Below, piece after piece: positions 40,267 through 56,720 of a stretch of 64,000 nt of DNA. Location: NCBI GenBank assembly GCA_965214835.1, contig CBDCCK010000002.1, positions 64,001 through 128,000 on the forward strand, given 5' to 3'. Position 1 is the stretch's first letter. Each line of letters starts with the position of its first letter. The notes beneath the pieces are model-generated. The model saw only the letters and a list, made by a program, of their open reading frames with translations. It had not been told where the DNA came from and did no database searches. The position numbers and the translations under genes are program-made. This DNA is from Nitrosopumilaceae archaeon. GTDB taxonomy: Archaea; Thermoproteota; Nitrososphaeria; Nitrososphaerales; Nitrosopumilaceae.

Positions 40267-40894
40267 TGTTTTTTCCTCCGTTTTTGTCGTTTGCTGCCGT
40301 CTTGCGGCAGGCGCACGCGGGGATGTTGTCCTCGCGATCATAGAAGAGCTTGGTGTCGTCTCCTTCCTCGATGCGTATGGTTGCAACCCTGTAGCCGTGC
40401 AGCTCGGCGGGAATGTCGATGAACTCGATTCCATCCTGCAGCGTGACGATTACGGAATCCTCATAGGCATAGACGCGCCGTGCAGTATCGCCGAATCTCT
40501 TACGGAACGACTCTTCTGCTGCAGTCAGGAACGTCTTTGCGCCGGAGCCGCAGCGATCGCCGCCTGTGGCAGGCTCCCGTACGCAGGGTGCGCACATGGT
40601 GCCGGCGACAGCGGGTACGCACGACAGGCCGGATCCTCCGGCAACTGCCGGAATGCCGCAGACCTGGCCGGAGTTATCCCGGACAAGCTCCGCATCCTCT
40701 GGGACAAGCTGTCCCAGCATGCAGCCGTACACCCTACCGTCATATCTGACAAAGAGCGCGGCCGTGTTCTTTTGCAGGGCCTTCTCCTTTAGTAGGGAGC
40801 CGGCCATAACTTTCCTGACAGTCTGCGGGATTGCAGTGCCGTCCAGGAATTTTCCGTTGTATTTTGCTACTGTTTTCTGGTCTATGATAACCAT
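40247..40894 (-). CDS. 'QKTVAKY' domain fused to a C-terminal domain, copy 4
   Basis: N-terminal repeat domain plus a unique ~120-aa extension. Confidence 0.72.
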   Translation of the reverse strand: MVIIDQKTVAKYNGKFLDGTAIPQTVRKVMAGSLLKEKALQKNTAALFVRYDGRVYGCMLGQLVPEDAELVRDNSGQVCGIPAVAGGSGLSCVPAVAGTMCAPCVREPATGGDRCGSGAKTFLTAAEESFRKRFGDTARRVYAYEDSVIVTLQDGIEFIDIPAELHGYRVATIRIEEGDDTKLFYDREDNIPACACRKTAANDKNGGKNNAKLGI

Positions 40895-40901
40895 CTCCTT
40901 A

Positions 40902-43181
40902 TTATTTGTCGTTTCCAAGCCTTGCATCGGCGTCAAGCGCCAGTGCAAGCATCTTCTCTACATTTTCGGTGTCGGCGTTGCGGTTTGCCAGCAGCCAGAA
41001 CATCCTGCTTATGGTCTTGTCGCGTATCCCGAGCTCCCCGTGAAGGTACAGCATCTTGTGGCGCGACGTGACATAACTCAGGCACTCGCCGGAGTGCTCC
41101 TTCATGTTATTACTCATGACGTCTTTGATGTCGCAGTACTTGTCGGCGGACTTGCCGGTTCTGTCATACCAGGCAGTAGAGATCTTGTAGGGGATGCGCC
41201 TGGCGCTGAGGCACGCCTCCAGTTCAAAGAGGCGGTCACCGGTCTCGATGACGAGCAGCTTTTTGTCTGATTTGACAAGCTCTGCAAGCCTGGGCCAGTT
41301 ATGGAGTACAAGGACTATGTCCTTGCCGGCAGCAGGCATATGCGCAGGGAGCATCGGCCCCTCGCTTGTGACATACGCCGAGCCTTCGGCAGTCCTGATA
41401 AGATCGTCCTCCCGTATGCAGGAGCCGGAGAGCGCACTGGAGGGCTTGGTCAGGCAGTATCCGGTGTCCCAGCGCCCGAGGATTTTGCGCATGACAGGCA
41501 TCCTGCCGTTGTTTACGACGACAGTCATCCTGCCAACGTCTGCAACGCCCCTTCTCTCAGAGAGTACCACGCCTTTTTCCCCGGCCCTTTCCCTGTGGAA
41601 GTGGACTGGGACCTCGGTGACCGCAGGCGGCGCCATACGTTTGACTGCCAGGCCGTGCCTTTTGATGTACCCGTCAAGCGTCTCAATTCCAAGACCCGTG
41701 AACCTGTCCATCCAGACAGACGGATCATCGGGCCGGACGACCTCGATGCCGGGATCATGGCAGCGTACGGCATCGACCTTGGACTTTTCCATCTTTTCGG
41801 CTGCCAGGAACCGGCTGCCGCTGCAGAGTCCGAGCCTTGTGCGGCCGCCTCTGCTGTTACGAACCTGGTGTCTTGCGACTGCCAGGATCTCCTGCATCTG
41901 CTGATCGGACTCACTCCAGAGATTCTCGTCAATGCATGTCATCAGCGTCCGTTTTGGGTGGGAGAGATACTCCTCAAGCGTACCAACGCAGAACTGCTCT
42001 TTGAAGCATTTCTTGAATGCGGCATCAATGCCTGCGGTGATCCTTTTAGACGAGCCGTCGCTGAGCCTCTCCCGGTCAGGGGTAGGCGGGTACTTGCGCT
42101 CGTCAAGTATGTTGACAAACATCCTGGCGCAGTGGTATTTCAAGAAGCCGCCATAACCGTACTCGATTGGAATCCTTGCAAGAAACGTCTGCGCCGCAAA
42201 ATTGTAATGTGGGGTCTCGATTTTGCCGTTCTTCGTCCGTATGATTCTGAACACACAGGCAGCATCAAAGTCGTCATCGCCGAACTCAAAGACGTATGAT
42301 CCCAGAGACTGGTTGCCATTACAGGAGTTGAACAGGGGCTCGTCTTCCGCGCATCTTCCGGCCATCCCGGATATGGTTTCGGGCAGATAGGAGTGCGTTC
42401 CCTCCTCATACGTGTTGGCATACTCGGCACTGACGCGGGATCTGAGGTTCAGGATTGTGGGAACCCCGCTGAGTCGTGAGAGGAACTTTATCATGTCGCA
42501 TAGATGCACCATGTCGATCTTCTCGTACAGGGTGAGGCTTATCCTGGTTCCAAAGTGATCCATGTCAGGCTCCGGCAGCCCCGTCTGGAACCCCATCCCG
42601 TTCTTTCCCAGGACCGAGTACTTTTTGCCGGTCTCCCTAGAGTGGACGTCCATGATCATTATCTCTGACAAACACAGGTATGCGGCGCGTCCGAACCCGA
42701 ACTGCCCGTTCTCCGTTCCCTCAAAGTTGGTGGAGCGGCCAAGGACGGTATACACGTCGGTAAACGTCTCCCAGCTCATACCCATCGAGTCGATGCCCTC
42801 TATTGCCAGGCTGCGGTTTACAGGATCAAGGGTTATCTCTATGCGGGAGTCGGCGCCGTGATGTTTCATTGCGTGGCGGCACGCGCGGGCCTCGTTTGCG
42901 TACAGCTCCCGCAGGCCCGAACTGGCATGCTCGTACAGGTCGTGCGATATCCTCTGGATTACCACGTCCTCCTCCAGGGACGTCCTGATGAACCCGTCCT
43001 TTGTGCCGTCAGGCAGGGAGCCTGTACTGCCGGGGTTTGGGATAGGAAGCGGCTTTTCTGATATTATCTCCGGCTTGTAGTATTTTGTCCCGCTCAAGCC
43101 AGAGCAGTCATCAGAGTCACCCATCGTACGGCACCGGTCCGGATCGCGGGATCGTGGTGCGGCCAGGGGACTTTCCGTCAT
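40902..43181 (-). CDS. HSP90/GHKL-type ATPase domain protein, paralog 4
   Basis: LRELYANEARAC, DSMGMS, GQFGFG motifs. Confidence 0.88.
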   Translation of the reverse strand: MTESPLAAPRSRDPDRCRTMGDSDDCSGLSGTKYYKPEIISEKPLPIPNPGSTGSLPDGTKDGFIRTSLEEDVVIQRISHDLYEHASSGLRELYANEARACRHAMKHHGADSRIEITLDPVNRSLAIEGIDSMGMSWETFTDVYTVLGRSTNFEGTENGQFGFGRAAYLCLSEIMIMDVHSRETGKKYSVLGKNGMGFQTGLPEPDMDHFGTRISLTLYEKIDMVHLCDMIKFLSRLSGVPTILNLRSRVSAEYANTYEEGTHSYLPETISGMAGRCAEDEPLFNSCNGNQSLGSYVFEFGDDDFDAACVFRIIRTKNGKIETPHYNFAAQTFLARIPIEYGYGGFLKYHCARMFVNILDERKYPPTPDRERLSDGSSKRITAGIDAAFKKCFKEQFCVGTLEEYLSHPKRTLMTCIDENLWSESDQQMQEILAVARHQVRNSRGGRTRLGLCSGSRFLAAEKMEKSKVDAVRCHDPGIEVVRPDDPSVWMDRFTGLGIETLDGYIKRHGLAVKRMAPPAVTEVPVHFHRERAGEKGVVLSERRGVADVGRMTVVVNNGRMPVMRKILGRWDTGYCLTKPSSALSGSCIREDDLIRTAEGSAYVTSEGPMLPAHMPAAGKDIVLVLHNWPRLAELVKSDKKLLVIETGDRLFELEACLSARRIPYKISTAWYDRTGKSADKYCDIKDVMSNNMKEHSGECLSYVTSRHKMLYLHGELGIRDKTISRMFWLLANRNADTENVEKMLALALDADARLGNDK

Positions 43182-43245
43182 ATATGGTTGCTGTTTTCTG
43201 GTTCATAACATCATCTCCTTTGTTTTTTGAAATGGCGGCAGACAT

Positions 43246-44688
43246 GCTGCCGGGACATCCGGTGCCGTGTGGCACTGGCTGATCCGGCAGGCGCGGCCGA
43301 CGCGCTGGAAGGGAGGAGTTCGTTGTGTATGAAACATTTCCTCACCTTCCATACATGCGCTGCAGCCGTCTGGTGGCTGTGGGCGCATGTTTCGGCCTTC
43401 CCCTTTTTCAGAGAAGGAGAAGGCCAACCCGGATTGCTACTCCGAGCGTTCCACATGACACGCAAAGGTGCCGTGGAACTCATCAGTGGAATTTTCCCTT
43501 TTTGACTTGTGGCCGGCATGGATGCCGGACGGATTGGGCGCACCGCCGCCGCCGTCATGGCAATGGCCGGTGCTGGCTTGGCGGACATTTACCTGTCTGC
43601 CACGTACCACAGGGTATTCCTGTGGCGGCCAGACATCGGCCACGGCATGCCGGATCGCGAAACCGTAACACCGCAGCCGGGTGCCTGCCAGCTGTCAAGC
43701 GTGAACCGGCCTATCCTTTCCGGTGCCTGTCCGTGATTTGCAGCCCGTGTCAGGTCTACTGTGACGCCGCTGCTGGTTACGACCATCGTGTCAATCCTGT
43801 CGCCAAACACGTCCTCAAAGAGGTGTCTGGTACGGGCCTCGTCGCACAGCTCGTAGTACAGGTTCACGTGGCGGCTGCCAAGTACCCAGTAGTCAAGCTT
43901 GTACAGGCCTATCACTTCAGGAATCCGCCGGTGGCCTGTCACGCGATGCAGCTTTTCAAGGAATTCCTCGGCAGAAGCAAACCCCCTGCTGGGAAGGTGA
44001 TCGATGCTGCCAGCCGGTTTCAGGGTTACATGGACGCCCCAGCCGCGTATGTCGATGTAGGTGCAGAGGGGGTTGTCGCCAAACTCGGCCTCAAAGAGGC
44101 GCCGGGCACAGGCCTTTATGTCGTCTATGACACGCGACCCTCCGGGTGCGGCTGGAACGCCGCACACCCTGCCGTGCCTGTCACGGACAAGCTCCGAGCC
44201 CGCTGGAACGTACATGCCTAGGTTGCAGCAGCCGTACACCTTTCTGCCGTATTTGATAAAGAGCGCGGCAGTGTTCTTTTTCAGGGCATGCTGCTTCCCA
44301 AGAAGTGAGCCTGCAGCGATACACTCGGCAGTATCCGGTACCGAGGTTGATGGCAGGAATTTGCCGTCATACATTGTCACTGTTTTTTGGTCCATGATCA
44401 TCTCCTTTTTTGCAGGTGCGGCAGTCACGCTGCCGGGACATCCGGTGCCGTGCGGCACTGGCTGATCCGGCAGGCGCGGCCGATGCGCTGGAAGGGAGGA
44501 GTCCGCTGTGTGTGAAACATTTCCTCACCTTCCATACATGCATCCACTGCCGTCTGACGGCTGTGGGTGCATGTTTCGACCTTCCCCTTTTTCAGGGACG
44601 GAGAAGGCCAACCCGGATTGCTGCTCCGAGCGTTCCACATGACACGCAAAGGTGCCGTGGAACTCATCAGTGGAATTTTCCCTTTTGA
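43246..44688. repeat. ~260-bp imperfect direct repeat (about 43246-43505 and 44429-44688)
   Basis: GCTGCCGGGACATCCGGTGCCGTG...GGAATTTTCCCTTTT at both sites, bracketing 43589..44395. Confidence 0.9.
43589..44395 (-). CDS. 'QKTVAKY' domain fused to a different C-terminal domain, copy 5
   Basis: MDQKTVTMYDGKFL..KNTAALFIKY..VYGC. Confidence 0.72.
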   Translation of the reverse strand: MDQKTVTMYDGKFLPSTSVPDTAECIAAGSLLGKQHALKKNTAALFIKYGRKVYGCCNLGMYVPAGSELVRDRHGRVCGVPAAPGGSRVIDDIKACARRLFEAEFGDNPLCTYIDIRGWGVHVTLKPAGSIDHLPSRGFASAEEFLEKLHRVTGHRRIPEVIGLYKLDYWVLGSRHVNLYYELCDEARTRHLFEDVFGDRIDTMVVTSSGVTVDLTRAANHGQAPERIGRFTLDSWQAPGCGVTVSRSGMPWPMSGRHRNTLWYVADR

Positions 44689-45080
44689 TTCATGACCGGC
44701 AGAGGCGCCGGTTCAGGCTGTCTGTTCTGGCGCGATGCCTGAATCATGGCACGCGCATCCGGACTGCACCATCCTGCGATGCGTCCGAGGTTTCCTATAC
44801 TGGAGGCGCACATGGCGCGCACCAGATCGACGCGGTCGTCCCGCGCAAGCGCGTTGAGAACGCGCACTGCGACGCGGGGGTCCACCCTGTTCTTATGGGT
44901 GACGCACCCGGCTACTGCCAGGGACGCGTTCCCGGAAAGGGACTTGCGCGCGCCCTGCCAGTTGTGGCCGCAGCAGGAATAGAACTCGGCTGCAAGGCCG
45001 GAGTGGCCGTTAATGACCAGGGCGTTGATGATGCCCGATACGTTCTTTGCGCTTAGCAATGCCAGGTGGTGCTGCAGCAG

Positions 45081-46976
45081 TTATACTGCAGGCATGGCAC
45101 TGTGAACCGGGCCCTGGCGGCCGTCCTGCGGAAGCGTTCTGCGACTGGAACGGCCGGCATGACTGCCGCGCTTGCCGCCGGCACCACTGCCGGAGCCCCT
45201 GGACTTTAGGAGGGTCCTGGCAAGACCGGCCTCCGTGCCTTTGCGGTCCACCGATTCCAGGGCAGATGACAGCTGCCTGAGGGATCCGGTGTCAAGCGAC
45301 CTCATCGAGGCGAGGACGTCGACTGTGGAGGAGTGTGTGTCCGGATAATCCGAATCCTCCGGCAGGGGCAGATCCATTCCGGACTCTGCCACATATGCGC
45401 CGTACTCCTTGACAAGCCTGTCGACTGCGCCGTTTTTGTGGCCACTTGCGGGCCTGCCGGCAGAATCCCTTGCGGGCCTGCCGCCGAGGATGCGGTATGC
45501 AAGCTTTGCCTCGGTTCCGCGACAGCCGGAGTTACGGAGATCGGCTGCCAGCCTCTTCAGGGAGTCCCTCTCAAGGCTTCTCAGTGATGCCATCGTCTCC
45601 TCGATGGAAGACTCGACGTCAGGGTATGCGTACTCGAACTCTGACTCTGTAGAGTCGATTCCGGATTCCGTCACATACTTGCTGCATTCGGCAATCGCTG
45701 CCGCGTTGGCATTCATTGCAGAGCCGTGGCGGCTGCCTGCAGCGGTCTTTTTGGCCCTGCCGCCTGCCGACTGCTTTCGGGCTGCCGGCGCGGTGCCTTG
45801 GCATCTGGCATGCGCGATTATGGCAGACGGATCAAAGGTTCTTTTGCCGCCCAGTCCTGCCTTTGACTTGGCGCGACTGAGAGTGCCCCATCCGGAGCGG
45901 CCGTCAGCAGAAGATGACGGCGACCGGTTACTGCGACTTTTGGATCTTGCCGCCATAGGCTGGTGCACCCTGCGTACGGGGAGCTCCTCCGGAGAGTCGT
46001 CCATGACCTCGGAGTAGAACTGTACCAGTGAGGCCTGCTCGTCGAGCTCAGAGGCGCTTGCCTTGAGATACTCGGCAGTTGCGGCGTCCTTTTCTTCTGC
46101 CAGTATGCCGGAGAACGTCTCGCGAACCTCATCAGACATCTCTGCCACGCATGCAAGGCTGCACACGCTGTCCTGCACGGCAGGATCAGCCGCCGTTGAC
46201 ACGACGGAAGGCTCGCAGGTCTTGACAGACATCCTGTCAAACTTGGATCCGGTACTGCTGATCTTTCTCCAGGATCCACTGCGGTCGCGGATTGCAAACG
46301 CTATCTCCGCTTTCCTGCAGCTGTCAATGTATTGCTGCCACGGTGATGCGGAGCGTTCGCGCCTTGTAAGCAGTGCCTGGCCGGCCGGCACCATTCCGTC
46401 AACGCCTGATGCGTGAGACGGGGTATCGGCATGAGATGACACGTGGGAGTGCACATCGTTGATGCCTGCAAGGACGCCGGTGTCGGTGACTGTGCTCACG
46501 GAGCCGTCATCCATGCGGGCCGCAAGGAGGGACAATCGCCTGTGACAGTCCTCCATGGCGTAGATCTCGCCGGGACACCCGTCGTCTGCAGGGTTCAGTG
46601 CAGATGATACCGTCTCATCGAGCATGCACTCTGCTGTAAGCTCGGTCCACTCGTCGCACATTGACTGTGCAAGCGATTTGGCCCGGGCTATCCTTACGTG
46701 GCGCGGTTCCCGCATCCTGACGGGGTTGCCAGTGTCCACAAGGATTATACTCCCGTTGGACATGACTGCGACAATCTCGCCACGTGACATGAACATATGC
46801 GTTTTACCGCCGCCTGCACCGGACGTCTTGTAGTAGACGGCCCCGCGGACGTTGGCGGATCTTCTCACCTGTCGGCAGACGCTGTTCACGTCGTGTTTTT
46901 TGCCGTCGACACTTATCGCGTCGAGGCGCGTATCTGTTTGTTTTGGTTTTTGTTTTTGTTTTTGTATTTGACTCAT
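45081..46976 (-). CDS. Large hypothetical protein with low-complexity linker and duplicated C-terminal motif
   Basis: Start at MSQIQK; two copies of YV.ESG.D...YPD..S......S.RSL...SL..L...L......GTEA.LA. Confidence 0.7.
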   Translation of the reverse strand: MSQIQKQKQKPKQTDTRLDAISVDGKKHDVNSVCRQVRRSANVRGAVYYKTSGAGGGKTHMFMSRGEIVAVMSNGSIILVDTGNPVRMREPRHVRIARAKSLAQSMCDEWTELTAECMLDETVSSALNPADDGCPGEIYAMEDCHRRLSLLAARMDDGSVSTVTDTGVLAGINDVHSHVSSHADTPSHASGVDGMVPAGQALLTRRERSASPWQQYIDSCRKAEIAFAIRDRSGSWRKISSTGSKFDRMSVKTCEPSVVSTAADPAVQDSVCSLACVAEMSDEVRETFSGILAEEKDAATAEYLKASASELDEQASLVQFYSEVMDDSPEELPVRRVHQPMAARSKSRSNRSPSSSADGRSGWGTLSRAKSKAGLGGKRTFDPSAIIAHARCQGTAPAARKQSAGGRAKKTAAGSRHGSAMNANAAAIAECSKYVTESGIDSTESEFEYAYPDVESSIEETMASLRSLERDSLKRLAADLRNSGCRGTEAKLAYRILGGRPARDSAGRPASGHKNGAVDRLVKEYGAYVAESGMDLPLPEDSDYPDTHSSTVDVLASMRSLDTGSLRQLSSALESVDRKGTEAGLARTLLKSRGSGSGAGGKRGSHAGRSSRRTLPQDGRQGPVHSAMPAV

Positions 46977-47410
46977 TAAAACACCTTTTTTTGGTTGTCT
47001 CTTGGCACTGTCGTCATGACAGTGCAACGGCACGGCATTCTTTCCCGCGCCCGGTGTGATGCTGTAAAAAAACACATGATATGGGCCAGGTGACATCCGG
47101 CCCAAATGACACATGATAGAATCTTCATGCGCCGCTATACTGCGGAAAACTGTTCTCGGACTCCCACACCTGCCTGCCTGTCAGCCTACAATAGTAGGTA
47201 ATGCAGGATTTGGAGGCCGCTGTCAGGTCACGAAAAAATTGGGGTTTGGACCGTCTACATGCGGCCCGTGTTCAGATACGCACAGTTGGGACATGCCGTC
47301 ACATGCCTCCTGCCTTCCACACCTGCCTGCCTGTCAGCCCTTTCGGGTATTGCAGGGTTTGAAAACAGTTGCCAGGTCACTAAAAATGTTGGATGCGTGC
47401 AGCCCCGAGG

Positions 47411-47758
47411 TCAGTTGCTCTTTCTCAGATACCCGGCGATCTCCCTGAGAATTGCCGTGATGTCATCCAGCTTGTCCAGCTTGGTGTCGATTCGATCCAG
47501 CTTGTCCAGCTTGGTGTTAATCCGGTCAAACCGCTTGTGTATCTTGGAGACCTCGTCATGTGTAAGAAGCAGCATCGTAATCCCTACGATCGCAGGCATT
47601 ATAAAGACTCCGTACACGGGCCACTCTCTTAGCAGCTCCAGCACGTCAGATTCCCCGCCAAACATGAGGAAGAATCCGAACAGAAGCATGCTTACAAATA
47701 CGACTCCCATCGGTCTTCTGAAGAGGAGCTGTACCTTTGCAGTAACGTGTTTGTTCAT
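47411..47758 (-). CDS. Two-TM membrane protein with LDKLDRID repeats
   Basis: Tandem near-duplicate of 47877..48191 with extra heptad-like repeats. Confidence 0.78.
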   Translation of the reverse strand: MNKHVTAKVQLLFRRPMGVVFVSMLLFGFFLMFGGESDVLELLREWPVYGVFIMPAIVGITMLLLTHDEVSKIHKRFDRINTKLDKLDRIDTKLDKLDDITAILREIAGYLRKSN

Positions 47759-47876
47759 GTTGTTTGTTCCTTCGGACTCCCACACCTGCCTGCCTGTCAG
47801 CCTACAAAGTAGGTAATGCAGGATTTGGAGACCGCTGTCAGGTCACGAAAAAATGTTGGATGCGTTGCCCTTGATG

Positions 47877-48191
47877 TCAGTCCTTCTTCAGATACCCTGC
47901 GATTTCCCGCAGAACGGCGGTAATCTCGTCAAGCTTGTCAAGCTTGGTGTCAATCCGGTCAAACCGCTTGTGTATCTTGGAGACCTCGTCATGTGTAAGA
48001 AGCAGCATCGTAATCCCTACGATCGCAGGCATTATAAAGACTCCGTACACGGGCCACTCTCTTAGCAGCTCCAGCACGTCGGACTCCCCGCCAAACATGA
48101 GGAAGAATCCGAACAGAAGCATGCTTACAAATACGACTCCCATCGGTCTTCTGAAGAGGAGCTGTACCTTTGCAGTAACGTGTTTGTTCAT
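47877..48191 (-). CDS. Two-TM membrane protein (duplicate)
   Basis: Near-identical DNA to the preceding gene. Confidence 0.78.
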   Translation of the reverse strand: MNKHVTAKVQLLFRRPMGVVFVSMLLFGFFLMFGGESDVLELLREWPVYGVFIMPAIVGITMLLLTHDEVSKIHKRFDRIDTKLDKLDEITAVLREIAGYLKKD

Positions 48192-48312
48192 GTTGTTTGT
48201 TCCTTCGGACTCCCACACCTGCCTGCCTGTCAGCCTACAAAGTAGGTAATGCAGGATTTGGAGCCCTTGTCAGGTCACTAAAAAATTTATGGTGTTTGAA
48301 GGAACAGGATTC

Positions 48313-48741
48313 CTACGGCACCCGCCTGTCCATGGCCGACTTTATGCCTCCCAGAACAGACAGTATTTCCTTTAGCACGACGCGCGTCATCTCGCCGTCG
48401 TCTTTGAGTGTCTTGCGCGTCATCTCGCCGTCGTCTTTGAGTGTCTTGCGCGTCATCTCGCCGTCCTTTCTGATGGCCTCCGTGAGTGTCTTGCGCGTCA
48501 TCTCGCCGTCCTTTCTGATGGTATCCTTGATTCCGGATGCGACATCGGCCGTAAGGAATGACATTATCAGTCCTACGAAGCCGGCGATAATAAAGGCTAT
48601 GCCCTCGCCGATCATGTCGATTCCGTCATTGATATGGGAGGACACGGCCATGACGACGCCGGTGCCGGTTATCCATCCGAACACGATGTTGGCGCGCCTG
48701 ATGATCCTGTCCTTGATTCTCTTCCTCATGTTCACGTTCAT
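48313..48741 (-). CDS. Two-TM membrane protein with DGEMTRKTL repeats
   Basis: Hydrophobic helices; 33- and 45-bp internal repeats. Confidence 0.78.
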   Translation of the reverse strand: MNVNMRKRIKDRIIRRANIVFGWITGTGVVMAVSSHINDGIDMIGEGIAFIIAGFVGLIMSFLTADVASGIKDTIRKDGEMTRKTLTEAIRKDGEMTRKTLKDDGEMTRKTLKDDGEMTRVVLKEILSVLGGIKSAMDRRVP

Positions 48742-48883
48742 TTTTTCTCCATTTGGCGTCTCACTCGCCGTGCATTTCCCACACCGGCCTGCCTGTCAGC
48801 CCCGTGCCGCAATGGGACGGGATGATGCCGGTTTGGAATGGTTGGCAGGTCATAAAAAAAATAAAGGGGTGTTACGGCCTTTT

Positions 48884-49555
48884 TCAGCAGCCGTATGACT
48901 GTGCCCACGCTTCTCGCGCGAACTCGCTTTTTGTGCAGAACCTTTCCAGTATCTCGGCATGCCCGGAGGTGACAAGCATCTCGTTGATCGAGACCGCATC
49001 GGAGCTGTAATGACAGATCACCTTTGCTATCACCCTGTCATACGAGCCGCCGGGCTGGCCGTCGTCCACGTCGTATACCGCGACGCTTCCGACCGGGCAC
49101 TTGGAGCTGACGTATGCCGTGGCATCCTTGTACCCGAACTCCCCCCTCTCGGGGGTGTTGACTAGTGCAAGCCTGACCCGCTTGCCCTCAACGTCCAGCG
49201 TGTCGCCGTCGATGATCCTCGTTACCGCACCGGCCTTCAGGCCGATTACCGATGACAGCCCGGTGCCGCTCTGGTTGAGATACACCTGGTGACGCCCAAG
49301 GGGGTCTGCAGGCCTGTCCTTGTCGTCTGCCTGCTGGCTGTCTGGCGTGCTGTGCCAGTTGCCGGATCCGCGGCGGCTTTCTGCTGCGCCTGTGAACTGG
49401 GAATCAACGGCATGGCCTATGCTGTCAACAACGCTGTCCACGCCGCCTGAAACGACTGGCGTGAAATGGGCCGAGATTGCCGGCGCCACAACGATGATGG
49501 CCATCATAAGCACCATTCCGATGATGATGGTTCCTGTTGTTCTTAGTTTGGTCAT
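48884..49555 (-). CDS. Thermonuclease (SNase-like) with N-terminal membrane anchor/signal
   Basis: VTRIIDGDTL, VRLALVNTPE, YDRVIA, INEMLVTSGHA motifs. Confidence 0.9.
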   Translation of the reverse strand: MTKLRTTGTIIIGMVLMMAIIVVAPAISAHFTPVVSGGVDSVVDSIGHAVDSQFTGAAESRRGSGNWHSTPDSQQADDKDRPADPLGRHQVYLNQSGTGLSSVIGLKAGAVTRIIDGDTLDVEGKRVRLALVNTPERGEFGYKDATAYVSSKCPVGSVAVYDVDDGQPGGSYDRVIAKVICHYSSDAVSINEMLVTSGHAEILERFCTKSEFAREAWAQSYGC

Positions 49556-49623
49556 AGACGCCCAAAAATTTGGCGTTTCGGGTCTGCATAGCCCAGTCGG
49601 GCTGACCCAATCCTCAGTATGAC
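49551..49623 (-). ncRNA. Type I hammerhead ribozyme upstream of the thermonuclease AUG
   Basis: GUCAUA CUGAGGA UU GGGUC..GACCC GAAAC GCC..GGC GUC/UAUGAC. Confidence 0.9.
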
Positions 49624-49673
49624 TGCGTTGAGTGGAAATGAAAACAAGAAAAAAGAAGGGGCGGGCGTGAGCC

Positions 49674-49919
49674 CTAGTGGAAGTCGCATCGCCGGCGGTG
49701 AAAACCGTCCCAGCGGCAGCGGGGGCATGGCAGAATCTCCGGATCGCTCAGTACCCACCGGGCAATCCAGAGATAATCGTACCTGATCAGCCAGCGTACG
49801 GCCATCCGCATGCCGCCCCTGCGGACTGCGGAGCCAAAGCACCTGAACTCCTTGAGGATGTTCCAGAGCACGCGCGCCGAGACGTGCGTGTATACGCTGC
49901 TGTTTTTGCTAGAAGTCAT
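49674..49919 (-). CDS. Small Cys-containing hypothetical protein
   Basis: 81 aa, CPRC..CDFH end, similar to the end of 50262..50636. Confidence 0.6.
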   Translation of the reverse strand: MTSSKNSSVYTHVSARVLWNILKEFRCFGSAVRRGGMRMAVRWLIRYDYLWIARWVLSDPEILPCPRCRWDGFHRRRCDFH

Positions 49920-49991
49920 AGACGCCCAAAAGTTTGGCGTTTCGGGCTTGCATGAACCCCTGGAGGGGGCTGGCCCAATCGTCAGTATGAC
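49915..49991 (-). ncRNA. Type I hammerhead ribozyme
   Basis: GUCAUA CUGACGA UU GGGC..GCCC GAAAC GCC..GGC GUC/UAUGAC. Confidence 0.9.
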
Positions 49992-50063
49992 CGTTGAGTG
50001 AAAGGAAGAAAAAGAATGGGTGGGGAGGACTTGAGGATCCTCCCGGATCGAGGAGCGAATGAC

Positions 50064-50192
50064 TCACCGGTCTGCCGGTACAGTACGTCCCAGGTTCCTG
50101 AGATAACATTCGTCCTTGAAATCTGCTATGGCTGCCAGCTCATCGGAGGTCTCAAAGTCCTCTGCTGCGCCTGTATCATAGATGTAATCCAT
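50064..50192 (-). CDS. 42-aa acidic micro-protein (also 50791..50919 and 52601..52729; truncated at 51709..51759)
   Basis: MDYIYDTGAAEDFETSDELAAIADFKDECYLRNLGRTVPADR; frame kept in three copies. Confidence 0.6.
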   Translation of the reverse strand: MDYIYDTGAAEDFETSDELAAIADFKDECYLRNLGRTVPADR

Positions 50193-50261
50193 GAGTGTAA
50201 TGTGGAAATTCTTGCAAAGTGTAAATTGTAAAAAGAAAAAAGGGGGTTGTGACTGCGGCCG

Positions 50262-50636
50262 CTAATGGAAGTTACACCACGTCCAGTACGAGCCCCAGTT
50301 CTCATCTTCCTGAACCCAGACTTTGTAACAATGGGGACACTTCACGTCAAACGGCGCCTCACGAGCCAATCGGAGAACCTCCCGGGTGCAATCCCAGAAA
50401 CGGCGCCATTTGGTTCTCAGGCTACAACCATAGCCATACCAGAGGCGCAGTTCGCAAAGGCGTTCTGCATGGCGCAGGGTACAACCGTGCAGACATGCAC
50501 ACGACTCAGGCCTGAAATTACGGTAGAGTTGATAGCAGACGCGCACCCACAGGTGTGAATAGATGCCTCTTTTTTTCACACGAGGGTATTTTGCCAGTGC
50601 TGTCTTTTCGTCGTAATAGATGCTTTTCGAAGTCAT
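50262..50636 (-). CDS. Cys-rich hypothetical protein
   Basis: Starts MTSKSIYY at the hammerhead cut site; CPHC..CNFH end. Confidence 0.62.
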   Translation of the reverse strand: MTSKSIYYDEKTALAKYPRVKKRGIYSHLWVRVCYQLYRNFRPESCACLHGCTLRHAERLCELRLWYGYGCSLRTKWRRFWDCTREVLRLAREAPFDVKCPHCYKVWVQEDENWGSYWTWCNFH

Positions 50637-50707
50637 AGACGCCCAAAAATCTGGCGTTTCGGGCTTGCGTGAGCCCCTTGCGGGACTGGCCCAATCATCA
50701 GTATGAC
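50632..50707 (-). ncRNA. Type I hammerhead ribozyme
   Basis: GUCAUA CUGAUGA UU GGGC..GCCC GAAAC GCC..GGC GUC/UAUGAC. Confidence 0.9.
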
Positions 50708-50978
50708 CGTTGAGTGAAAGTAAGAAGAAGGAAAAAAGAATGGGAGGGGAGGCCATGAGAGGGCCATCCCCGATCAAAGGTTCGAACGGCTCACCGGTAT
50801 ACCGGTACGGTACGCCCCAGGTTCCGGAGGTAGCATTCATCCTTGAAATCTGCTATGGCTGCCAGCTCATCGGACTTCTCAAGGTCCTCTGCTGCGCCTG
50901 TTTCATAGATGTAATCCATGAGCGTAATGTGGAAATTCTTGTAAAGTGTAAATTGTAAAAAGAAAAAAAAAGGGGGGA

Positions 50979-51533
50979 TCAGTCTCTGCCGAAGAGACTG
51001 TTCCATTGTGCCAGGAGGCGACCAAAGACAGGCCACGAATACCCGTCGTCGTGACAAGGATGCGCGCCATACCTTCCAACGAAGAGATCGGCCCATACCT
51101 CGCTGGCAAAACTCTCACGATTCATGAGTCCATCGGCCATCTCCCGATGGCAGTGCCTCGTGAGCGCAGAGAGGTTCATGCCGTGTTTGATGGCGTGCCC
51201 TATCCACTCGGGATCGCCGGAGCGCGGCAGCAGGTTGGCCTCGTGATGCCCAAGCTCGTGGTAGAGTGTGTTCCTGACACACGCGCCGCAGTGCTGAATG
51301 CCGCAGATGGCAATCTCCATTGAGGAAGGGTCATAGTACCCGTAACAGTCAGGTCTCGAATCTTCCACGTAAAGGAGGCAGACGCCGCGCCTCAGGTACG
51401 ACGGTATGCGAAAATACTCCTCACGGATCATCTCGACTTCGTGGACGTACGGGCGCATCTCCGCGCAGACGGACACTGCCGTCTGTGGTTGCTCGCGGGG
51501 TCGGCTATTGAAGTGGTGAACAGATGTGTTCAT
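50979..51533 (-). CDS. Zinc metallopeptidase-like protein (HExxH), copy 1
   Basis: GYYDP...LYHELGHH...SEVWADLF. Confidence 0.75.
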   Translation of the reverse strand: MNTSVHHFNSRPREQPQTAVSVCAEMRPYVHEVEMIREEYFRIPSYLRRGVCLLYVEDSRPDCYGYYDPSSMEIAICGIQHCGACVRNTLYHELGHHEANLLPRSGDPEWIGHAIKHGMNLSALTRHCHREMADGLMNRESFASEVWADLFVGRYGAHPCHDDGYSWPVFGRLLAQWNSLFGRD

Positions 51534-51601
51534 TGTAATGTGTAACATGGAAAAAATGGGGGATGGGATGCGACAAACAGCCGCATCCGGATGAGGGGAC
51601 T

Positions 51602-51691
51602 TTAGTCCCAGATTTCCCGGTCTTCGGGATCCTCTTCGAACTCGCGGATTATGCGAGGGTAAAAGGGTGTCTTTTTCTTTTTGGAATTCAT
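51602..51691 (-). CDS. 29-aa micro-protein (duplicate at 53411..53500)
   Basis: MNSKKKKTPFYPRIIREFEEDPEDREIWD followed by a hairpin and T-tract. Confidence 0.4.
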   Translation of the reverse strand: MNSKKKKTPFYPRIIREFEEDPEDREIWD

Positions 51692-51817
51692 TACTGAAAT
51701 TTCTGGAATCAGGAAATGCCAAAGTCCTCTGCTGCGCCTGTTTCATAGATGTAATCCATGAGCGTAATGTGGAAATTCTTGTAAAGTGTAAATTGTAAAA
51801 AGAAAAAAAAAGGGGGA

Positions 51818-52375
51818 TCAGTCTCTGCCGAAGAGACTGTTCCATTTGGGGAGCAGGCGCCTGTAGGTGTCCCACGAATAGTGGAAACAGCTCCATCTGG
51901 ATCCGTGCCTTCCAACGAAGAACTCTGCAAAGACTTCCCCTGCGAATGTGTGCGTGTCCATCTCGCCGCGCTCCATCTTCTGATGGCAGAACTCAGTGTA
52001 CCACGAAAGGCTCCTGCCAAACTCAAGGGATGCAGCAGTCCAGTCCGGGTGTGCCCAGAGCTTGTGCGTCTTGGAGCAGTGGTGCCCGAGCTCATGGTAG
52101 ATGAGAGACCTTACGCATCTGCGACAGTGCTGCAATCCACAGACGGTGATCGTCTGATCCGTCCAACAATAGAACCCTCCACCTTCCGGTCTGGGCCCTG
52201 CAATGTGCAGACAGCGGATACCGCGCCTGAGATCAGGGCGGACGCGAAAGTACTCCTTGCGGATTATTCTGACAGCATGCTCATGTACGAGCATTTCCTT
52301 GCTGACAGTGAACTTCGGCGTGTAGCGCTCCGGAGAGCGTCGGCATTTGAAGATGTTTGTAAACATGTTCACCAT
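51818..52375 (-). CDS. Zinc metallopeptidase-like protein (HExxH), divergent paralog
   Basis: GFYCW...IYHELGHH...GEVFAEFF. Confidence 0.75.
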   Translation of the reverse strand: MVNMFTNIFKCRRSPERYTPKFTVSKEMLVHEHAVRIIRKEYFRVRPDLRRGIRCLHIAGPRPEGGGFYCWTDQTITVCGLQHCRRCVRSLIYHELGHHCSKTHKLWAHPDWTAASLEFGRSLSWYTEFCHQKMERGEMDTHTFAGEVFAEFFVGRHGSRWSCFHYSWDTYRRLLPKWNSLFGRD

Positions 52376-52787
52376 AATGTAGAAAAATCGGGGTATCGTA
52401 GTGAGAGGTCTTGAAAAAACCTGTCACTCTGCGTTCTAGACTTTGGATTCGCGGAACCTGCGGCGGCCGGGACACTTCACACCAGCGCCGGTGCCACAGG
52501 GATTGTTGGAGGTTGTGATTCTGGAAAATCCTGAAAAACTGAAAGAAAAAGAATGGGTGGGGAGGACTTGAGGATCCTCCCGGATCGAGGAGCGAATGAC
52601 TCACCGGCTGGCTGGTACGGTACGTCCCAGGTTCCTGAGATAACATTCGTCCTTGAAATCTGCTATGGCTGCCAGCTCATCGGAGGTCTCAAAGTCCTCT
52701 GCTGCGCCTGTTTCATAGATGTAATCCATGAGTGTAATGTGGAAATTCTTGTAAAGTGTAAATTGTAAAAAGAAAAAAAGGGGTGGA

Positions 52788-53342
52788 TCAGTCTCCGCCG
52801 AAGAGACTGTTCCATTGTGCCAGGAGGCGACCAAAGACAGGCCACGAATACCCGTCGTCGTGACAAGGATGCGCGCCATACCTTCCAACGAAGAGCTCGG
52901 CCCATACCTCGCTGGCAAAACTCTCACGATTCATGAGTCCATCGGCCATCTCCCGATGGCAGTGCCTCGTGAGCGCAGAGAGGTTCATGCCGTGTTTGAT
53001 GGCGTGCCCTATCCACTCGGGATCGCCGGAGCGCGGCAGCATGTTGGCCTCGTGATGCCCAAGCTCGTGGTAGAGTGTGTTCCTGACACACGCGCCGCAG
53101 TGCTGAATGCCGCAGATGGCAATCTCCATTGAGGAAGGGTCATAGTACCCGTAACAGTCAGGTCTCGAATCTTCCACGTAAAGGAGGCAGACGCCGCGCC
53201 TCAGGTACGACGGTGTGCGAAAATACTCCTCACGGATCATCTCGACTTCGTGGACGTACGGGCGCATCTCCGCGCAGACGGACACTGCCGTCTGTGGTTG
53301 CTCGCGGGGTCGGCTATTGAAGTGGTGAACAGATGTGTTCAT
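52788..53342 (-). CDS. Zinc metallopeptidase-like protein (HExxH), near-identical duplicate of copy 1
   Basis: Part of an ~850-bp near-identical duplication (about 50884-51725 vs 52693-53535). Confidence 0.75.
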   Translation of the reverse strand: MNTSVHHFNSRPREQPQTAVSVCAEMRPYVHEVEMIREEYFRTPSYLRRGVCLLYVEDSRPDCYGYYDPSSMEIAICGIQHCGACVRNTLYHELGHHEANMLPRSGDPEWIGHAIKHGMNLSALTRHCHREMADGLMNRESFASEVWAELFVGRYGAHPCHDDGYSWPVFGRLLAQWNSLFGGD

Positions 53343-53537
53343 TGTAATGTGTAACATGGAAAAAATGGGGGATGGGATGCGACAAACAGCCGCATCCGGA
53401 TGAGGGGACTTTAGTCCCAGATTTCCCGGTCTTCGGGATCCTCTTCGAACTCGCGGATTATGCGAGGGTAAAAGGGTGTCTTTTTCTTTTTGGAATTCAT
53501 TACTGAAATTTCTGGAATCAGGAAATGCCAAAGTCGG

Positions 53538-55195
53538 CGGAGTTATATGGTGGGATAATTGTACAGGAAATGGTGATGAGGGCTCAGACTGCTCCCTGTC
53601 TTCATTGCATCGCAGTGATGCTCAGAATGAATGGTGTCTCATCATCGCCCTCGTTTGTGTAGCAGAATAATGCGGGAATCTAATCGGCAAAGCAGGTTGG
53701 AGTTATATTACAGAATAATGATTCAGGAAATGGTGATGAGGGCTCAGACAACGCCAGATTCATCATGAATCAGACTGGGGGTGTCTCATCATCGCCCTCG
53801 TTTGTGTAGCAGAATAATGCGGGAATTTTCAAAGTCAGAATGGCTGGAGTTATATGGTGGAGTGTGGTACGAAACATGGTGATGAGGGCTCAGATGTCAC
53901 GGCTTTCTTCATAGCCACGACAGGCTCGGAGATTATTGCTGATCTCGGCCCTTTGTTCTTCATCATCGCCCTCGTTTGTGTAGCAGAATAATGCGGGAAT
54001 TTTCAAAGTCAGAATGGCTGGAGTTATATGGTGGAGTGTGGTACGAAACATGGTGATGAGGGCTCAGACAACGCCAGATTCATCATGAATCAGACTGTGT
54101 GTGTCTCATCATCGCCCTCGTTTGTGTAGCAGAATAATGCGGGAATTTTCAAAGTTGGAATGGCTGGAGTTATATGGTGGAGTGTGGTACGAAACATGGT
54201 GATGAGGGCTCAGACAACGCCAGATTCATCATGAATCAGACTGTTGGTGTCTCATCATCGCCCTCGTTTGTACAGCATAATTTGCAGAAGTTTCTGCTTC
54301 AAAGTTGGCTGGAGTTATATGGTGGAGTGTGGTACGAAACATGGTGATGAGGGCTCAGACTGATCTCTGTCGTCATTGCATCGCAGTGATGCTCAGTATG
54401 AATGGTGTCTCATCATCGCCCTCGTTTGTGTAGCGGAATAATGCGGGAATCTAATCGGCAAAGCAGGTTGGAGTTATATTACAGAATAATGATTCAGGAA
54501 ATGGTGATGAGGGCTCAGATAGGTAGCTGTCTTCATTCACGAAGTCAGAATAACAGGCTGTCATCATCGCCCTCGTCTGTGTAGCGGAACAATACGGGAA
54601 TCTCGGCGGCAAATCAGGTTGGAGTTATATGGTGGGATGATAATTCAGGAAATGGTGATGAGGGCTCAGACTGACTCGACCGTCATTGCATCACAATGAT
54701 GCTCCGGATGAATGGAACTCATCATCGCCCTTGTTTGTGTAGCGGAATAATACGAAAATCAAAAGTTAGAATGGCTGAAGTTATATGGTGGAGTGTGGTA
54801 CGAAACATGGTGATGAGGGCTCAGAATGCTAACTGTCTTCATTCGTGAAGTCAGTATAACAGGCTGTCATCATCGCCCTCGTTTGTGTAGCAGAATAATG
54901 CCGGAATGACCGGGTTGGAGTTATATTGCAGAATGATGATTCGGGAAATGGTGATGAGGGCTCAGACCTATAGCTGTCTTCATTCGTGAAGTCAGAATGA
55001 ATGGAACTCATCATCGCCCTCGTTTGTGTAGCAGAATAATGCGGGAATCTAATCGGCAAAGCAGGTTGGAGTTATATTGTGGAATGATAATTCAGGAAAT
55101 GGTGATGAGGGCTCAGATAGGTAGCTGTCTTCATTCGTGAAGTCAGAATGAATGGAACTCATCATCGCCCTCGTTTGTGCAGCGTAATAATGCCG
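53538..55195 (-). ncRNA. Tandem array of 11 box C/D guide RNA units (53578-53652, 53738-53799, 53884-53973, 54058-54119, 54204-54265, 54349-54423, 54509-54574, 54660-54732, 54815-54880, 54956-55021, 55107-55172)
   Basis: Each unit reads GAGGGC-G-AUGAUGA(C)-guide-CUGA(D')-loop/stem-AUGA(U/A/C)GA(C')-guide-CUGA(D)-GCCCUC, with K-turn geometry and roughly 10-13-nt guides; D' is variant (CCGA, CGGA) in units 3 and 8. Confidence 0.93.
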
Positions 55196-55271
55196 GGATG
55201 GATCTGTATCTCAATCAAGTCGGACAGTCAGTTGCAGGGGGGTATAATGCTCAAAAAATGGCTGGTTTTGC

Positions 55272-55508
55272 CGTCCTCGAATTCGGGGACGCTTGGCGGA
55301 TTTTTCGGCGTTTTTGAAGAGTTGTCTTAAAGATAGAGATTTTTCCTAATGTTGCAGTTCTGTTTTGTTTGGGATTATTCCCGGTTTTTTGTGCCTACCT
55401 CTGGATCTTTTGTATTAAGGACGTTTTGCGGGGGTATACTATCCAGTTTTTGGGGGCGTCCCCGATACCGGGGACGGAGGGGCAAAAGCGTCCCCGAATT
55501 CGGGGACG
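55272..55508. promoter_or_regulatory. Three 20-bp palindromes CGTCCCCGAATTCGGGGACG (55272-55291, 55457-55476, 55489-55508); candidate centromere/operator
   Basis: One perfect and two near-perfect copies directly upstream of the actin-like gene. Confidence 0.7.
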
Positions 55509-55547
55509 CCTTTTTGGCCATTAAATGCAAACCGTGCTGCGGTATGC

Positions 55548-56459
55548 ATGGGAAGAAGCACAGAGTCCACGCCGGCCGGCGGGAAGGCGGCATCTCTAGG
55601 AGGCGCCGACATCGCCGTCGGGCTGGACATCGGGACAGGATCAGTCAAGGTCGCGACCAGAAGGCACCGCTTCAAGTTCCCGTCGGTCGTGGCAAGGGGC
55701 CGGGCAATATCCGTCGACGGCTCGGAGCCCGAGTCCGTGTTTGTCGGGGAGCAGGCAATGCGGCAGGAGCACGTCAGGTCCATGCTGCTCAAGACGCCAG
55801 TATACCGGGGGGTGCCGACTGCGATGGACGACTATATCGAGCTGGTGCGGCACGCCCTCGACCTGGTGATCAGGGCCGACAGGAACACGGTCTGGCACGG
55901 GCCGTCAGGATACTCGGAGATGGCAATAGTGGCAGGCATCCCGTACAACTCGCGGGACAGGGTGGAGGCCATAAAGAAGGCAGTGCAGGCCGAGTTTGCC
56001 CCGCACAGGTTCGGCGTGATGTTCCAGGCCAGGGCAACGCTTGAAAACGAGGGGATGAGGGACGGAATAGTGTGCCATATCGGCCACGGGACGACAGAGA
56101 TGATGGCGGTAATCGGCGGGAACACCGCATACGGGGAGACCGTGCCTCACGGCGTGGGAGACGTCGTCATGGCAGTCACGGGATCCAGGACAGGATACAC
56201 CGACCACTCGGTGTTTGCTTCGGGCTCGCAGCTGCTGGCAGAAAACAGGCGCATACTTGCCGGCCACATAGCCGACAGCCTTGAGAAGATAGTCATAGAC
56301 TATCCGGGGCTGGACGTGGTGTTTGCAGGCGGCGGGGCGCTTGTACCGAAGCTGGTAGGCGAGATACGGGTCAGGACGTCGGGGACTGTCAGGACGGCAG
56401 ACGAGCCGGTGTTTTCAAACGCCCTGGGAATGCTGAAGAAGGCGACGGGGCTGTGCTGA
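55548..56459 (+). CDS. Actin-like ATPase (ParM/StbA/MreB superfamily)
   Basis: GLDIGTGSVK (phosphate 1), HIGHGTTE (phosphate 2), FAGGGA (adenosine), F.NALG. Confidence 0.85.
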   Translation: MGRSTESTPAGGKAASLGGADIAVGLDIGTGSVKVATRRHRFKFPSVVARGRAISVDGSEPESVFVGEQAMRQEHVRSMLLKTPVYRGVPTAMDDYIELVRHALDLVIRADRNTVWHGPSGYSEMAIVAGIPYNSRDRVEAIKKAVQAEFAPHRFGVMFQARATLENEGMRDGIVCHIGHGTTEMMAVIGGNTAYGETVPHGVGDVVMAVTGSRTGYTDHSVFASGSQLLAENRRILAGHIADSLEKIVIDYPGLDVVFAGGGALVPKLVGEIRVRTSGTVRTADEPVFSNALGMLKKATGLC

Positions 56460-56707
56460 CGCCGCGAGACCGCCGGTACCTGGAGTCCCCGGGATCGCTG
56501 TCAGGCGAGGCAAGGAGGAAGGCAAGGTACAGGATGAGGGCTAGGATTGCGGCAGTGATGGATGATGCGCGGCTGCTCATGAGCAATGCCGAGACGGTGA
56601 GGCGGGAGTTTGGAATCGACGTGCGCGGGATCCTGCAGGACGGGGCTGAGGAGGCGCAACAGGAAAAGGAAGCCGTGGAGGCCGGAGGGGATCCGGATCT
56701 GCTGTAG
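56453..56707 (+). CDS. Small basic/acidic protein coupled to the actin-like gene
   Basis: Overlaps the upstream stop; LTPRDRRYL...RYRMRARI. Confidence 0.65.
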   Translation: MLTPRDRRYLESPGSLSGEARRKARYRMRARIAAVMDDARLLMSNAETVRREFGIDVRGILQDGAEEAQQEKEAVEAGGDPDLL

Positions 56708-56720
56708 CGGGGATGCCGGA

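Follow-up and report, generated by a model that had tools for sequence, protein, structure and literature searches.

A recurrent, covarying RNA motif beside hammerheads in Nitrosopumilaceae: a candidate border element of island transcripts

About ten classes of small self-cleaving ribozymes are known, and most of the recent ones were found as conserved motifs lying beside hammerheads in mobile DNA; twister-sister and pistol were discovered by their nearness to hammerhead and twister genes. HDV-like and hatchet ribozymes cut at their own 5' edge, the HDV-like fold being a nested double pseudoknot (P1, P1.1, P2, P3, P4) that is cut at the 5' end of P1 and has its catalytic C in J4/2. The exonuclease-resistant RNA (xrRNA) of flaviviruses stalls a 5'-to-3' exonuclease by a ring around the 5' end, built from a junction and a pseudoknot. 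Here we analyze a structured RNA motif of about 75–95 nt that is present in five copies in a 64,000-nt stretch of DNA from a Nitrosopumilaceae archaeon (contig CBDCCK010000002.1, positions 64,001 to 128,000; hereafter the window), close to a group of hammerhead-like elements. An earlier note on this DNA had described the five copies and had suggested either a new self-cleaving ribozyme or a cis-regulatory RNA.

Like twister-sister and pistol, the motif lies beside known ribozymes in probably mobile DNA, is of similar size and engages a hairpin loop in long-range pairing. In those ribozymes, however, the loop pairs with an internal loop or a linker, whereas the loop of the motif pairs with its 5' tail, and the conserved nucleotides differ. 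With HDV-like and hatchet ribozymes it has in common that it is an element of 5' untranslated regions in such DNA and that its 5'-most strand is locked in a pseudoknot or stem; if it cut at its own 5' edge, it would also stay on the downstream RNA as they do. Unlike in them, the partner of the 5' strand is the loop of the motif's own 3-bp hairpin inside a three-way junction, and the motif lacks P1.1, any P4-type hairpin following that partner and an invariant C in the joining strand. A three-way junction and a pseudoknot that involves the extreme 5' end are likewise combined in the xrRNA, which stands at a border in a longer transcript. In the xrRNA, however, it is the junction that the 5' end pairs with, and a second pseudoknot links a hairpin loop to the 3' tail. 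In the motif, the 5' tail is the partner of the hairpin loop, the entire structure is closed by an outer helix, and neither its sequence nor a model matches the xrRNA. The type I hammerheads of the same islands share with the motif the intergenic slot, the orientation along the genes, the small size, the three-way junction and the presence of several copies per island, but the motif differs from them in its junction strands of 0–4 nt, its pseudoknot to the 5' tail and its extra closing helix P1.

The five copies and their fold

A reading of the minus strand and the count of a 21-mer both confirmed the five copies at the positions that the earlier note had given them, and its outer bounds, 48852 and 47158, fall on the U of UGACCUG in copy 1 and on the last outer-helix base of copy 5 (Table 1). 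The 21-mer, CTGACAGGCAGGCNGGTGTGG, is found five times on the minus strand and not once in 100 dinucleotide-preserving shuffles. Throughout the genome of 3,222,539 bases it has five matches when up to two mismatches are allowed, all on the reverse strand, and a covariance model searched against the whole genome returned the same five copies with 78–100 bits and nothing else better than E = 0.2.

From 5' to 3', the fold consists of an oligo-U run, a UGA, a 5' pseudoknot strand of 4–6 nt, the outer helix P1 of 7 bp, a conserved internal loop AAA(Y)/UGUG, P2 of 5 bp and a three-way junction of P2, P3 and P4 with joining strands of ANNA, 0 nt and 0 nt. The P3 hairpin is variable. P4 is a 3-bp stem whose loop (A-CAGG) pairs with the 5' strand and thereby forms the pseudoknot. 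About 25 positions are conserved at 90% or more, mainly outside the helices: UGA, CAA, CAAA, the first A of ANNA, GAC, GC and UGUG. All helices named in the earlier note are present in the window, namely GGGCUCC/GGAGUCC with its CAUUCC and GUUUUC variants, CCUGC/GCAGG versus CCGGC/GCCGG, and the variable hairpin. Copy 1 has a T8 run, UGA, the pseudoknot strand CCUG(C), P1 CCAUUCC/GGAAAUG with a bulged A, P2 CCGGC/GCCGG, a long P3, P4 CUG/CAG and the loop ACAGG. P1, P2 and P3 of copy 2 read GGGCUCC/GGAGUCC, CCUGC/GCAGG and CCUAC-UUU-GUAGG, and copy 4 has P1 CUGUUUUC/GAAGGCAG and P3 CCC-GAAA-GGG. P1 carries a U.U mismatch in copy 3 and a C.U mismatch in copy 5. Copies 2, 3 and 5 are near-identical recent duplicates, duplicated along with the downstream gene, and the window alone therefore holds only about three independent sequences.

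That the motif is a real, selected RNA structure is, in our judgement, almost certain. When the window was searched with cmsearch together with 16 fetched clusters and three named loci, 77 matches from 20 sources were obtained, 63 of them distinct; the first model was built from 11 sequences and the second from 77. In the 63 distinct sequences, standard pairs occupy 87.8% of 1497 cells compared with 68.2% in shuffles, and the covariation score of 0.505 (0.177 shuffled) was reached by none of 500 shuffles. Control structures shifted by 1–3 columns scored 0.08–0.12. All helices covary, the pseudoknot and P4 included; the model that made the alignment held P1, P2 and P3, so the alignment favours these three, and the pseudoknot and P4 were absent from that model. 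The helix covariation that the earlier note had read from the window, with its three or so independent sequences, became convincing once the copies of other genomes were added: examined by means of a covariance model, it is strong in every helix and in the pseudoknot.

The suggested pairing of 5' CCUG with CAGG was upheld, as both sides of the pseudoknot change among the distinct sequences. Three forms exist, CCUG/CAGG in most copies, CCGAG/CUCGG and CUGAG/CUCAG. Pair 14-97 is CG in 54 sequences and UA in 4, pair 16-95 is UA in 45, AU in 5 and GU in 4, and an inserted pair 15-96 is GC in 5, some rows with variant pseudoknots being misaligned by one column. The stem of P4 takes the forms CUG/CAG, GGG/CCC, CGG/CCG, UCG/CGA and CCG/UGG; 98.2% of its cells are paired, and both sides change in two of its three pairs (CG/UA/GC and UA/CG/GC). 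The block CUGACAGGCAG, described before as invariant, is indeed present, but it is a hairpin with a covarying CUG/CAG stem around ACAGG rather than a plain invariant strand; CUGACAGG, which comprises the stem and loop of P4, becomes CGGACUCGG or UCGACUCAG in variants. An extension of the pseudoknot to C20-G92 was considered and dropped, the P4 pair G92-C99 being preferred. P3 contains 37 G.U as opposed to 4 A.C combinations, an excess that fits an RNA read from the minus strand. Minimum-energy folds recovered P1-P2-P3 in all six of six diverse copies, with modest z-scores of -0.4 to -2.7.

Neighbouring copies in the arrays of genomes G100 and G139 (loci L155, L156, L157 and L158) differ in pseudoknot sequence, with CCUG/CAGG before a gene for a protein with two transmembrane segments (two-TM) and CUGAG/CUCAG after it. 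Differing pseudoknots would prevent mispairing between neighbouring copies on one transcript.

Known RNA families and distribution among genomes

At gathering scores, Rfam 15 matched only tRNA and one C/D box small RNA (sRNA) in the whole window, and not the motif. At E ≤ 10, none of the 93 matches listed for positions 40000–56000 overlaps the five copies, and the 131 bases around copy 2 (48180–48310) gave zero matches, so that the absence of a fit to any known family, first judged by eye, holds in a scan down to this threshold. Twister, twister-sister, pistol, hatchet, hairpin, glmS, VS and hovlinc were rejected on the same basis, with zero Rfam matches at E ≤ 10; Rfam 15 presumably contains models of all these ribozyme families. 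As far as sequence can tell, the motif is a new kind of cis-acting structured RNA element without relation in Rfam, with a topology set apart from the ribozyme classes by the customary definitions of these classes.

Several other identities were considered and rejected. An HDV-like ribozyme has a different strand order, and neither a P1.1 nor an Rfam match was found; the strand that follows the pseudoknot partner forms the 3' side of P4 and is variable (CAG, CCG, CGA, UGG, CCC). An integron attC site is a DNA hairpin that ends a cassette, carries conserved R''/R' core sites (RYYYAAC / GTTRRRY) and has an integron integrase in its vicinity; the motif has an outer helix without conserved sequence, invariant bases in loops and a covarying pseudoknot. 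A K-turn between the 5' UGA and CUGA would have its GA dinucleotides on the wrong sides of the pairing strand. Against a frameshift or readthrough signal, the preceding stop codon lies 11–40 nt before the U-run and the payloads, i.e., the units downstream of the motif, include RNAs. A riboswitch is a conserved aptamer that stands before genes of related function and has an expression platform; here the payloads are unrelated (open reading frames (ORFs), SNase, C/D box sRNAs, tRNA-Asp), and the start codon lies anywhere between a few and about 260 nt away. The hammerhead was dismissed because the CUGANGA/GAAA/UH core is lacking, the junction strands are AAA(Y), ANNA, 0 nt and 0 nt, and there is no match at E ≤ 10; a permuted hammerhead, an idea that comes from PMC10085705, would require 7-nt core strands that the motif does not have. 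A description of the motif was not found in the full-text literature searched, and a term search of PMC6563490, the main paper on integrated elements of this phylum, gave 0 hits for ribozyme, non-coding, ParM, actin, ArdC and thermonuclease.

The figures for family, class and phylum come from samples and mean "not found in the genomes searched" rather than absence. In a sample of 150 other genomes from the window's own family, 10 carry the motif. A class sample yielded it in 11 of 150 other genomes, ten of the same family and one with a weak 22-bit match elsewhere, and none of 131 sampled genomes from other families of the phylum contained it. The copies are clustered, with up to 12 per genome. 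The island that bears them thus far appears confined to some ammonia-oxidising archaea of the window's own family. A pattern scan with one genome per species returned at least 119 loci, almost all chance matches in coding DNA. We read 124 pattern loci, five of them from the window's own genome; among the matches listed outside that genome, only L016/L017, from a metagenome-assembled genome (MAG) filed as 'bacterium', and L045 and L048/L049, from two Nitrosopumilus sp. MAGs, are real, and these three records hold full copies with T-runs and altered helices. In IMG/VR viral contigs, 59 pattern loci led to nine model matches of 20.8–25.9 bits, which we judged to be chance. True copies were present in two of ten pattern loci from JGI metagenomes (L232 twice, L240 once), each with the exact pattern.

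Hammerheads, the oligo-U run and probable transcript borders

In other genomes, the motif starts at a median of about 18–25 nt after the stop codon of the preceding ORF. What comes next, at a distance of a few and up to about 260 nt, is an ORF, a further copy of the motif, a C/D box sRNA or tRNA-Asp(GUC). The ORFs after it belong to unrelated families. The C/D box sRNA lies 10 nt downstream in L163 and L164, and the first base of tRNA-Asp(GUC) lies 1–2 nt past the model span in L167 and L169. This tRNA occurs in only two of the four genomes of its genus searched and is therefore island-borne and not a host housekeeping gene. We think that the motif probably has a punctuation or 5'-end-defining role in island transcripts, a view that we hold with some reserve. 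The genes, sRNAs and tRNA of an island would be transcribed as long co-oriented units, and the motif would mark the border at which the preceding unit ends in a U-run and the next one begins, setting or guarding the 5' end of the downstream RNA.

The suggestion of a cis-regulatory RNA lost ground in the sense of a gene-specific regulator or riboswitch, since the motif also precedes C/D box sRNAs and tRNA-Asp. A protein or small-ligand site that regulates the whole island, as an island-wide switch or a packaging or recognition signal, appears improbable as well. Such a site would account for the many invariant unpaired nucleotides, for the several copies per island before most units and for the restriction of the motif, among the genomes sampled, to those bearing the island. 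In one variant the U-run would be an Sm-like (SmAP) site; the consensus of these sites is A-U5-8-G, and the U-run often reads A-U(5-8)-G. However, no RNA-binding protein family was recognised in the island, where 18 of 24 scanned proteins have no Pfam match, and no expression platform was seen. The variable distance to the start codon and the tRNA and sRNA payloads make translational control unlikely, and an island-wide switch does not predict that hammerheads take the place of the motif.

The hammerheads that the earlier note had seen next to the motif were recovered by a type I descriptor, which has three matches in the whole 3.2 Mb genome, all of them in the window, immediately before the motif row. 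Rfam at E ≤ 10 did not match them (40000–56000; 49540–50760), maybe because two extra U separate the CUGANGA core from helix II. In related clusters totalling 176,697 bases (G139, G149, G148 and G072), the same descriptor found eight canonical hammerheads, and the Rfam type I model matches the three of G072, one of them above the cut-off (35.4 vs 34 bits). Under strict filters, RF00163 matched in 5 of 151 family genomes and missed the descriptor hammerheads of G148 and G149, which makes it too insensitive for co-occurrence statistics. In every hammerhead, the start codon lies within the 3' strand of stem I (GUC^nAUG, with GUC^U-AUG in the window; AUG or GUG in related islands). The predicted cut falls 1 nt before this codon, and cleavage would therefore yield a leaderless mRNA, which points to a possible natural route to such messages; in the literature searched on ribozymes, hammerheads and noncoding RNA in these archaea, we found no description of natural hammerheads making leaderless mRNAs.

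The motif and the hammerheads replace each other. Upstream of ten SNase orthologues (blastp, E ≤ 1e-5), a hammerhead stands in five cases (window, L157, L158, L159, L017) and the motif in four (twice in L162, once in L163 and, as a variant that escaped the model, at L045:685-764), which bears out the claim that both occupy the same cassette position; the orthologue in L155 has neither element, its gene being coupled to the preceding ORF. Whereas hammerheads leave no leader, SNase genes after the motif have a leader of 15–25 nt, often with a GGAG or GGUGA box. Both elements recur in G072 in the order ORF stop, T-run, motif, C/D box sRNA, AT box, hammerhead, ORF.

As the mechanism behind a border role we rank self-cleavage first, albeit tentatively, because of the hammerhead swap, the small size, the fold with its junction and pseudoknot and the invariant junction bases; the several copies per island are a further ribozyme-like trait. 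Type I hammerheads would fill the same role by cutting 1 nt before the start codon, and the motif would cleave itself at or near the border of U-run and UGA and stay on the downstream RNA as a folded, cap-like 5' leader. The fuller proposal, a new small self-cleaving ribozyme class, first discovered in archaeal genomes, that jointly with the hammerheads splits island transcripts into mRNAs, sRNAs and tRNA and remains as their folded 5' end, is doubtful; if the motif does cleave itself, a further ribozyme class native to archaea would be a notable find.

A T-run of at least five ending in the 14 nt before UGA precedes 57 of the 63 distinct copies (its end lying within 0–2 nt of UGA) compared with 1886 of 66,962 background windows of the same loci (2.8%), the first proportion being mildly inflated by the search, in which the first 8 columns of the model are the T-run; copies without U-run nevertheless score 40–82 bits. 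This placement supports a border position. A number of observations weigh against self-cleavage. A ribozyme that cuts at its 5' edge needs no conserved U-run upstream. The U-run is missing in 6 of the 63 copies, three of which have further oddities: two, both of G149, carry a G+C hairpin in its place, and a third, at L045:685-764, was detected by eye only. The covariation of the pseudoknot amounts to about three sequence types and hence few independent events, and none of the nucleotides stood out as a catalytic candidate. A look-up of RNA runs for positions 46900–50800 returned four runs, all DNA contig sets of one study. The T-run and its C/A-rich 5' neighbour also resemble an archaeal BRE/TATA promoter whose start would fall near CAAA, inside the motif. 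Moreover, the odds for a ribozyme are modest because the published success rate for such candidates is low: according to PMC10085705, ten conserved motifs beside ribozymes were tested in one hunt and none cleaved.

The resemblance to a promoter leads to the DNA itself. Upstream of the T-run lie about 8 nt rich in C and A and no further AT-rich peak, none at -25 to -35, and the conserved CAAA follows the T-run at about 19–21 nt. Archaeal BRE/TATA promoters have an AT-rich box about 23–30 bp upstream of the first base of the transcript. The T-run is the sole candidate for such a box, and the covarying P1 and 5' pseudoknot strand lie between it and the predicted start. As there is no other promoter-like box and a start about 23 bp past the T-run would exclude P1 and the pseudoknot strand, we infer that the motif RNA derives from transcripts that pass through the T-run. 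That the motif acts mainly as DNA, either as a BRE/TATA promoter starting near CAAA or as a folded single-stranded signal of a transferable element, is in our view highly improbable. The sequence around the T-run, the need of every payload for a promoter and the plasmid-like genes of the islands (actin-like segregation protein, DNA methylases, HExxH proteins in L168 and L169) speak for such a reading. Yet P1 and the 5' pseudoknot strand covary although they would lie upstream of such a start, recognition of double-stranded DNA needs no complementarity with changing sequence, and G.U exceeds A.C in P3. In addition, the runs are pure T and not mixed T/A, even in AT-rich genomes, and a different AT box (CATTATT) stands before the C/D box sRNAs of the window and the hammerheads of G072.

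Since a 5'-edge cutter needs no upstream U-run, the U-run is better explained by a non-catalytic border element that involves nuclease or termination factors. The archaeal termination and processing factor of aCPSF1/FttA type recognises U-rich tracts, and the put RNA of phage HK022 is a folded RNA that acts on the polymerase. Host machinery, presumably this factor, would cut at the U-run while the polymerase carries on, and the pseudoknot 3 nt further on would block a 5'-to-3' exonuclease or prevent termination, leaving a stable downstream RNA; in a variant, the folded RNA would act on the polymerase itself in the manner of put RNA. This would explain the conserved oligo-U close to UGA, the lack of another promoter-like box, the five serial units of T-run and motif without intervening promoters in the window, and the generic payload. 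The hammerhead swap fits too, as hammerhead cleavage leaves a 5'-OH, which would also shield the 5' end, and the flaviviral xrRNA has the same general architecture of a three-way junction plus a pseudoknot to the 5' tail. No archaeal exonuclease-resistant or put-like RNA is known, however, six copies lack the U-run and no Rfam match of xrRNA type was obtained. We rank this explanation close behind self-cleavage and regard it as unlikely, though less so than the island-wide switch. If the motif is indeed non-cleaving, archaea would have in it a first candidate for a structured element at transcript borders, protecting a 5' end or preventing termination, and it would help to understand how mobile elements of archaea achieve expression of long gene arrays across oligo-T terminators.

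Genes and RNAs of the putative island

From its genes we infer that the region is an integrated, plasmid-like mobile island; the G+C profile shows no clear edge that would mark its borders. The co-oriented row in the window starts with a 42-aa ORF, a hammerhead, an 81-aa ORF, a second hammerhead and the SNase gene. It continues with T-run, motif and a two-TM gene and with two such units that carry small membrane-protein genes, and it ends with a T-run and motif without a gene (copy 4) and, about 60 nt downstream, the T-run and motif (copy 5) ahead of the 677-aa ORF. From the end of the model span of copy 5 to the first ATG of the longest frame of this ORF there are 38 nt. The SNase gene is flanked by a hammerhead before its start codon and by copy 1 after its stop codon.

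Table 1. Positions of the motif copies, hammerheads and neighbouring genes. Motif spans are those of the covariance model, with an 8-nt T-run and 5 nt of 3' flank counted in; positions refer to the window unless a locus is given.
Feature	Position	Strand	Remarks
Motif copy 1	48768-48860	minus	78.1 bits with first model (R1); 23 nt past SNase stop codon, upstream of ORF 48313-48741
Motif copy 2, top-scoring	48202-48285	minus	100.3 bits; P1-P2-P3 recovered in minimum-energy fold; upstream of ORF 47877-48191
Motif copy 3, near-duplicate of copy 2	47769-47853	minus	94.3 bits; upstream of ORF 47411-47758
Motif copy 4, diverged	47306-47387	minus	80.6 bits
Motif copy 5, resembles copy 3	47153-47238	minus	89.5 bits; upstream of 677-aa ORF 45081-47114
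Two-TM protein gene, payload of copy 1	48313-48741	minus	C-terminal tandem repeats; sub-threshold Pfam 8xMP match
Small membrane protein with repeat tail, payload of copy 2	47877-48191	minus	
Paralogue of ORF 47877-48191, payload of copy 3	47411-47758	minus	one extra repeat
SNase-family nuclease gene	48884-49555	minus	PF00565, 24.1 bits vs cut-off 21
Hammerhead-like type I element 1	49551-49623	minus	predicted cut after GUC, 1 nt before SNase AUG
Hammerhead-like type I element 2	49914-49992	minus	predicted cut 1 nt before AUG of ORF 49674-49919
Hammerhead-like type I element 3	50631-50708	minus	predicted cut 1 nt before AUG of ORF 50262-50636
Canonical type I hammerhead	L157 11951-11998		
Canonical type I hammerhead	L158 6952-6999		
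Canonical type I hammerheads	L159 2190-2235, 7488-7551		
Canonical type I hammerhead	L162 7961-8011		
Canonical type I hammerheads	L163 529-581, 1798-1842, 2170-2218		
Canonical type I hammerhead	L017 2512-2557		named MAG

The Pfam matches in the window are the SNase homologue, an actin-like segregation protein, two DNA methylases, an fn3/HYR surface protein and the sub-threshold 8xMP match. The actin-like gene (ALP/ParM-type) and the two DNA methyltransferase genes lie at 55548-59218, adjoining the RNA-rich region. Related loci likewise encode an actin-like protein and HExxH proteins, the latter in L168 and L169.

Members of the same two-TM family follow the motif in L016 and L048. The two-TM proteins (window 47411-48741; L016 1593-2528; L048 1058-1495) end in tandem peptide repeats whose unit and copy number vary among paralogues and genomes (e.g., KDGEMTRKTL, DRIDTKLDKL, KNQEFLE, KSQNEMA), and these tails look like variable-number repeats. 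In several genomes a small conserved hairpin, e.g., with a GAUGC/GCAUC stem, separates the motif from the start of the two-TM gene downstream (L048 ~1440-1478, L155 ~3855-3880 and L016 ~2010-2036).

The two tRNA-Asp(GUC) genes lie at L167 2659-2731 (minus) and L169 2808-2880 (plus) and are 84% identical to each other; the motif that leads them has a pseudoknot of the CCGAG/CUCGG type. Further along the window, at 53579-55172 on the minus strand, 11 units resembling C/D box sRNAs are arranged in tandem with a spacing of about 150 nt. One of them scores above the Rfam gathering score, and each has a CATTATT box about 20 nt upstream and a flanking GAGGGC/GCCCUC terminal stem. Between 50979 and 53531 (minus), a 42-aa acidic ORF (MDYIYDTGAAEDFE...) and a T-rich spacer, both of them repeated, alternate with three paralogous ORFs that have a HELGHH motif and lack a Pfam match.

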